36,622 nucleotides of DNA from a virus. Lineage: Duplodnaviria; Heunggongvirae; Uroviricota; Caudoviricetes. Under the pieces are notes generated by a model. The model searched no databases and was not told the origin of the DNA. It saw only the letters and a list, made by a program, of their open reading frames with translations. Of this stretch, positions 19,738 through 20,570 are shown piece by piece. The stretch lies in IMG/VR virus record IMGVR_UViG_2531839531_000013, positions 1 through 36,622 of that record. One strand, written 5' to 3'. Position 1 is the first letter of the stretch. Every line of letters starts with the position of its first letter. A program made the position numbers and the translations under genes.

Positions 19738-20570
19738 TCAGCAATTGGTCAGAGTGTCAGCGGGGGCGTTACCGCCTGTTGCACGCTGGCGGTAGTCCTG
19801 GCGGCTGTCTTCATGACTCAGCTTATTCACCAGTTCGTTAAAGGCGGTCTGCTGTGCCTGCAGGGCAGTCTCCAGCTCAGACAGACGTTCTTCCTGCTCA
19901 GACAGGGATTTTTCGGTGCGTGCGCTCAGGTTTTGCTGCTCAGTGGCGACCAGCTCCACGGCCTTATGCACATCAGAGAACCGGGCATCGTCGGACTGCT
20001 CTTTTTTGGTAAACAGCGCCGTGACACGGGCAAACAGGGACGGTTTGTCCTCCTGGATTTCTTCCAGTTCGATCACCGTTTCCTCTGCGGCGGTAAAGAG
20101 ATTGGCGGGATTCTGCTTGCGGTTTGCCAGCGGGTTATGGGCTGCACTGGCGCTGAATGTCAGCATTTCCGTACCCAAACTGGCAGGGTCATCAGTGGCA
20201 GCCAGGCCGACCAGGTAGGCTTTGCCCGTATCAGCGAACTTCGGGCTGACTTCCATAGAGGTGAATAATTTCTGGCCTTTTTTCACCAATTCCACCAGGG
20301 ACTCCGTTGGCTCAACGTCGGCATACAGCGCCATCTTGCCTGCCAGCGGCCTTCCGTGATTTCTTCAGCAAACAGCGCCGTCACCTTGCCGTAACGGTTA
20401 AAGGTGCTGTCCGGGAGATAAGACTTGATGTGCTCAAGGTTAATCAGCGCGGTATACACCGCCGGGTTGTAGCTGGCTGCCATCTGTTCCAGCCATTCAC
20501 GCTGGATTTCGCGTCCGTCGGTGGTGGCACCTTCCACCCCGATGCGAAAACGCTTTGCTTTCACTGTCAT
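19738..20570 (-). pseudogene. O: Capsid scaffold protein O, interrupted by a 1-nt frameshift
   Basis: Two overlapping ORFs (20283..20570 and 19738..20334) each resemble consecutive parts of P2 gpO; frame switch localised to 20335..20364. Confidence 0.65.

Follow-up and report, generated by a model that had tools for sequence, protein, structure and literature searches.

A probable one-base deletion divides capsid scaffold gene O of a P2-like prophage in enterotoxigenic Escherichia coli 2726800

Gene O, which in P2-like phages specifies the internal capsid scaffold fused to the serine protease of capsid maturation, is read in this locus as two overlapping open reading frames (ORFs), which raises the question of whether a base has gone missing from the bacterium or from its sequence, and what such a loss would mean for the phage. 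The window, the whole 36,622-nt stretch analysed here, is a 34.8-kb P2/186-family prophage at ssrA of enterotoxigenic E. coli (ETEC) 2726800, a strain described as ETEC and as bearing a novel colonisation-factor cluster (PMC4462620). Judging from the sequence comparisons set out below, we put the probability that one C:G pair was truly lost from gene O, as a change private to one clone, at roughly 85%.

Two halves of one gene O

The divided gene consists of the following parts:
20283..20570, minus strand: 5′ fragment of gene O, a 95-aa ORF whose exact product is GenBank EMX76094.1
19738..20334, minus strand: 3′ fragment of gene O, a 198-aa ORF in the −1 frame relative to the 5′ fragment
20347..20351, minus strand: site of the 1-bp deletion, placed by alignments with E. 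coli E6, NCTC9064 and 2020N21-246

The 5′ fragment is organized into 74 native codons (Met1–Gly74) followed by 21 out-of-frame codons and a TGA stop (20285-20283), and the 3′ fragment, counted from an internal ATG (20334-20332), corresponds to native residues 80-277. The two ORFs overlap at 20283..20334, and both frames are simultaneously open only within 20286-20364. The original prediction had taken them for successive parts of P2 gpO, a reading with which both an alignment to P2 gpO and matches to PF05929 (Phage_GPO), the family of phage capsid scaffolding protein GPO serine peptidases, agree. The 95-aa ORF matched profile positions 2-79 (E=4e-34, 118.9 bits) and the 198-aa ORF positions 76-268 (E=3.5e-70, 237.1 bits; gathering score 33.6), and an intact relative matched positions 2-268 in one piece. 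Because the two matches adjoin, the ORFs are consecutive halves of one gene and no chance pairing. A tblastn search with the protein of the intact relative likewise traced residues 1-74 to frame −3 and the rest, 75-277, to frame −2 (20349..19741). Two antisense ORFs on the plus strand (20222..20359 and 20307..20804) were treated as mechanical by-products of the GC-rich coding region.

Alignment with E6 and NCTC9064 disclosed one difference in 193 nt, the relatives carrying GAAGGCCCGCTGG and the window GAAGGCCGCTGG. On the plus strand, CGGGCC of the relatives is CGGCC here (GGG to GG at 20348-20349); on the coding strand, GGCCCG is reduced to GGCCG, which turns GGC CCG (Gly74–Pro75) into GGC CG. 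Loss of one C from a GGCCC run, with a frame switch within about 30 nt upstream of 20334, had been proposed for this gene, and the alignment locates exactly this loss inside the expected interval (20335..20364). An extra C had also been expected to restore a 277-codon ORF, and 277 codons is indeed the length of the uninterrupted ORF in intact relatives. The DNA encoding one of these, GPO protein WP_000216248.1 (E6, NCTC9064), is identical to the window over 921 nt bar the one deleted base.

Comparison with P2 gpO (NP_046759.1, PF05929) places the product in the same family and the gene in the matching slot, flanked by N and the divergent P/Q pair; columns of the Asp-His-Ser triad, a helical C-terminal region and a final Cys are common to both. 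The differences are an identity of ~49%, a length of 284 codons in P2 vs 277 in the intact relatives, and the 1-nt deletion after codon 74 here. In this alignment, P2 Asp19/His48/Ser107 correspond to D18/H47/S105, and D19 and H48 of P2 gpO were reportedly identified as catalytic residues by Chang et al. in 2009. All three triad residues are present in the window but divided, with D18 and H47 inside the native codons of the 95-aa ORF and S105 in the 198-aa ORF. The latter also aligns through P2 residues 195-284, the C-terminal scaffolding domain, up to the terminal Cys (...TLTNC). Gene position fits the GPO family as well, O being the first gene of its operon, divergent from P/Q and directly upstream of N. 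What the family has and this gene does not is a single uninterrupted ORF of 277-284 codons encompassing both domains, the split falling at codon 74/75. Judged by its sequence, gene O here is a GPO-family pseudogene and not a functional member.

Origin of the missing base

Sequencing error and inactivating mutation had both been left open for this site, and the public assemblies together with the clean sequence context now favour the mutation. The 95-aa product is an exact match to EMX76094.1 from E. coli 2726800 (contig AQFE01000032.1, assembly GCA_000356625.2), and GenBank thus already has gene O as two fragments. Over 20,597 bp of AQFE01000032.1, the window is 100% identical, deletion included (three samples counted). 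The same holds for a 15,149-bp contig of Logan assembly ERR4899266 (100% identical, deletion included; five samples counted) and a 7,715-bp contig of Logan assembly SRR446723 (100% identical, deletion included; one sample counted), and the 95 + 198 aa split is present in both, their independence being one of data sets and assemblers and not necessarily of cultures, as one strain may have been re-sequenced. A literature search with the ERR4899266, SRR446723 and AQFE accessions for the independence of the isolates found nothing. Since the carriers show zero differences over 15 kb, the deletion is best read as a single event in a single clone; the C:G pair would have been lost from the three-base run at codons 74-75, most likely by one replication slippage event.

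Outside this clone the deletion was absent from every collection searched. A query of 921 nt that takes in the gene found 1,121 places in 5,426 complete E. coli genomes and 50 phage records, with a subject span of 922 nt in every match listed. A 71-nt query centred on the site aligned at 1,044 places in these E. coli genomes without one perfect match, the top matches all being 98.6% identical, which equals one gap; the deletion was likewise not found in the 50 phage records. An exact 50-mer across the deletion returned 0 matches in GTDB species representatives, JGI metagenomes and IMG/VR. Against the closest relative, 2020N21-246, window positions 16001-35175 differ by 11 substitutions and two 1-nt indels, namely the O deletion and an intergenic A8/A7 run at 33071. 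The run at 33071 is A8 here and A7 in 2020N21-246, where a polymorphism, or an error in either genome, is possible.

If the gap were an artefact, the strain would carry GGCCCG and an intact 277-codon O, a base having been dropped from a short homopolymer during sequencing. One-nucleotide homopolymer loss is a classic error of 454, Ion Torrent or nanopore sequencing, and the lesion is formally of this type; it is also unique among >1,000 gene copies, it sits in a prophage that is otherwise intact, and the second 1-nt indel relative to 2020N21-246 again lies in an A7/A8 run (33071). However, the run at the O site is only 3 nt long, and the deletion recurs in a GenBank assembly and two Logan assemblies with different read accessions (NCBI and ENA submissions). 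The local context was read correctly at 1,044 places elsewhere, which argues against a context-specific systematic error, and a frameshift occurs in 0 of the 48 other coding sequences (CDSs) compared. The sequencing centre (IGS), moreover, used high-depth Illumina for its ETEC genomes (HiSeq2000, >200x; PMC4462620), a description that covers the centre's ETEC isolates as a group. We consider an artefact improbable. As the case illustrates, independent public read-set assemblies can justify accepting a one-base homopolymer difference in a draft genome as real.

The remainder of the prophage and its cargo

The loss of a base from O, most likely a true one, is set in a prophage spanning ~405..35177 with P2/186-type gene order, whose frame is given by these features:
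40-402: ssrA tmRNA gene (ARAGORN)
358..404, plus strand: attL, with a 47-bp core equal to the ssrA 3′ end (ARAGORN and an exact 47-bp direct repeat)
18663..19721, minus strand: gene N for the major capsid protein, which matches a relative at 352/352 aa (100% identity)
20571..20712: divergent P/O late-promoter region with a TGT-N12-ACA motif at 20649-20666
20713..23513, plus strand: two intact genes facing away from O and labelled from Pfam, P (588 aa, large terminase subunit) and Q (344 aa, portal)
35131..35177, plus strand: attR, which repeats the 47 bp of the ssrA 3′ end without a difference (direct repeat) and marks where homology to the 2020N21-246 prophage stops

Set against the P2-like hallmark gene list (PMC13100340), the window contains L, M, N, O, P, Q and T in P2 order, an integrase and att repeats, as expected of a P2-like (Peduoviridae) prophage, and all P2 hallmark genes are full length except O. 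According to the P2 annotation, the operon runs O-N-M-L-X-Y-K-lysA-lysB-R-S with O first; gene N, whose product is a substrate of the gpO protease, lies directly downstream of O in this operon and is intact. The P/O promoter region is identical to that of relatives with intact O. In P2, the corresponding interval carries annotations for an activator binding site and for the pO/pP starts, and the TGT-N12-ACA motif at 20649-20666 is presumably an Ogr binding site.

We then consider the 48 other reference CDSs (46 core prophage genes, the RT-side hypothetical gene and the dCTP deaminase gene, with the RT-domain gene counted 48th). For each, 92-100% of the length was recovered in one frame, with 45 of the 48 complete from end to end, and O alone is split among the relatives' CDSs compared with the window. 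As these 48 CDSs and both 47-bp att repeats are intact, the lesion appears recent, and the prophage looks freshly inactivated by a single lesion.

The accessory genes and the elements next to them comprise:
511-1426: RT-domain protein, 257 aa, adjoining attL/ssrA beyond ogr, with an overlapping 56-aa ORF
8977..9549, minus strand: serine recombinase (Resolvase + HTH_7), 188 aa, adjoining the tail-fibre genes
23522-25251: DUF4145 and HNH-domain proteins, in a variable locus between portal gene Q and the DinI-like/replication genes
33202-34938: anti-phage dCTP deaminase, 577 aa, between int and attR (PADLOC dCTPase, E=4e-145)
35381-36622: tyrosine integrase, 413 aa (Arm-DNA-bind_3, Phage_int_M and Phage_integrase domains)

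Retention of cargo had been claimed alongside the lesion and holds true, the RT-domain, DUF4145, HNH and dCTP deaminase genes all being full length. The RT-domain protein matches PF00078 (E=1.8e-21) and shows moderate scores with the PADLOC retron RT models (best RT_VI, 7.8e-18); these matches point to a probable defence RT carried as cargo, of retron type or another. The DUF4145 protein gave a weak PADLOC match to PD-T7-4 (1e-6), and in the prophage of SRR26681400 the same Q/replication variable locus is taken up by two other genes, of 329 and 230 aa. The dCTP deaminase locus represents a third cargo position.

Beside the tail-fibre genes, 27-nt inverted repeats (9599-9625 and 11209-11235) flank a stretch with the 3′ end of H, the gene for tail-fibre assembly and ORFs on the opposite strand (9571..9954 and 9851..10138). 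By this arrangement, the segment within 8977-11235 looks like a host-range segment of the Gin/Cin/Pin-type invertible class. The ERR4899266 Logan contig starts exactly at 11209, as would be expected if the coexistence of both orientations, or the repeat itself, breaks the assembly graph. On the far side of the prophage, the 413-aa integrase starts ~200 nt past attR, which places a second integrative element in tandem at ssrA; by its length and position we take this integrase to resemble CP4-57 IntA.

Could the loss of O have been selected? The frameshift would then mark an early domestication of the prophage into a headless tailocin-like producer and/or an immobile defence island, and either induction would release tailocin-like particles or the prophage would persist immobile with its immunity, lysis and anti-phage cargo. 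The tail, baseplate, tail-fibre (with its invertible segment) and lysis genes are intact, and the three accessory loci have kept their defence-type genes, all of which such a reading would accommodate. Independent O lesions also occur in related prophages. One, in SRR26681400, is a GAA to TAA nonsense change at codon 69 of a 98%-identical O allele (L007 9764-10597), and another, in GCA_001373215.1, is a chromosomal remnant that starts inside O and retains N, some of M and only the 3′ part of O (L008 9996-11987). These examples came from a search able to return only broken genes; they show that such lesions occur and are uninformative on how frequent they are. The head genes N, P, Q, M and L, moreover, are intact, which is unexpected under selection for headlessness, and a lone lesion in one clone with zero divergence among its carriers has the look of very recent neutral decay. 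Both points are easier to square with recent neutral decay, and we hold selected domestication to be very unlikely.

A further 95-aa frameshift product (P0002), from a metagenome contig at 3.9x coverage (L013), clusters with the product of the window. A codon hotspot was considered on this basis and rejected: P0002 lost a different base (A of AA, three nt upstream) from a 97.6%-identical allele, and clustering at 90% identity recovers only shifts at nearly the same codon. Decay by point lesions in morphogenesis genes is the general rule for prophages, and the O lesion, as neutral decay, is routine pseudogenisation of an already known kind. Its consequence is mainly one of annotation, in that one P2-like prophage of ETEC 2726800 is probably headless, and it raises no new biological question.

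Predicted effect on capsid assembly

In P2, gpO residues 1-141 form the protease, which cleaves gpN, gpO and presumably gpQ, and residues 195-284 form the scaffold (PMC7552001). The S107A substitution makes gpO protease-deficient, and full-length O(S107A) still yields procapsids; in procapsids that lack the protease, maturation fails, and viable virions of P2 and P4 alike require gpO (PMC7552001). Translation of the allele found here would begin at the normal O start, proceed through 74 correct and 21 wrong residues and terminate at the TGA (20285-20283), 545 nt ahead of the natural stop. The resulting 95-aa product would retain Asp18 and His47 without Ser105 and the whole scaffolding domain, and would be expected neither to cleave nor to scaffold. 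Deprived of gpO, T=7 procapsids would not be assembled, gpN and gpQ would remain unprocessed and DNA-filled heads would not form, leaving the prophage unable to make plaque-forming particles or to help P4-type satellites. Because O is first in the operon and the stop lies 545 nt early, expression of the downstream genes (N, M, L, X, the lysis genes, R and S) may also be cut by polarity. No effect is expected on lysogeny, immunity or integration, nor on the accessory genes towards the ends.

By extrapolation from P2, whose gpO is only ~49% identical, the frameshift should therefore be a null allele, with no procapsids, maturation, infectious particles or P4-type helper function predicted. The expected phenotype is the one of P2 O amber or null mutants and of cryptic P2-like prophages, headless with the rest intact; the lesion differs from the P2 O mutants in being a natural frameshift in a clinical ETEC clone, with a predicted phenotype. 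It is relevant to predicting inducible phages, mobilisation of P4-type satellites and phage-mediated transfer in the 2726800 clone.

Were a second P2-like element present, gpO could come from it in trans. Window position 26357, which falls in gene A, is where both Logan contigs stop, and one of them also stops at 18643; no repeat was found within the window at 26357 or 18643. The break at 26357 hints at related sequence or a second P2-like element, or at polymorphism, elsewhere in the genome, and it is in this way that the contig ends bear on possible complementation of O.

The split gene might, finally, still work as it stands and leave enough scaffold or protease activity for particles to be made to some extent, through low-level −1 ribosomal or transcriptional slippage that restores full-length gpO or through a 198-aa fragment started at ATG 20334, whether or not the 95-aa fragment takes part. 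Slipping back by one base after GGC would bring CCG into frame again and give the exact native G-P-L-A, and the 198-aa ORF opens with an ATG preceded by a weak AGG four nt upstream and holds the whole region of the P2 scaffolding domain (195-284) with the terminal Cys; in P2, procapsids still form with protease-dead full-length O(S107A) (PMC7552001). This is scarcely credible, however, given that the site (A-AGG-CCG) is no slippery heptamer, that >1,000 relatives have an uninterrupted ORF and hence no conserved recoding signal, that the catalytic triad would be spread over two polypeptides, and that protease-less procapsids stay immature in a phage whose viable virions need gpO (PMC7552001). 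Both a −1 slip at GGC-C restoring the native sequence and reinitiation at ATG 20334 to give a protease-less scaffold fragment are unlikely. Programmed frameshifting was rejected in particular, the frame change being found at 0 of 1,044 places in E. coli and in 0 of 50 phage records; no X XXY YYZ heptamer is present, and ACG GAA GGC CGC permits no tandem re-pairing.

The same prophage offers an apparent programmed −1 frameshift for comparison:
6649-7082: tail chaperone pair E / E+E′, with a slippery TTTTTTG at ~6817-6823

As in O, two overlapping frames encode one product. The split of O lacks a slippery site and is absent from all relatives, whereas E/E+E′ possesses the slippery TTTTTTG and has both of its parts annotated in relatives.
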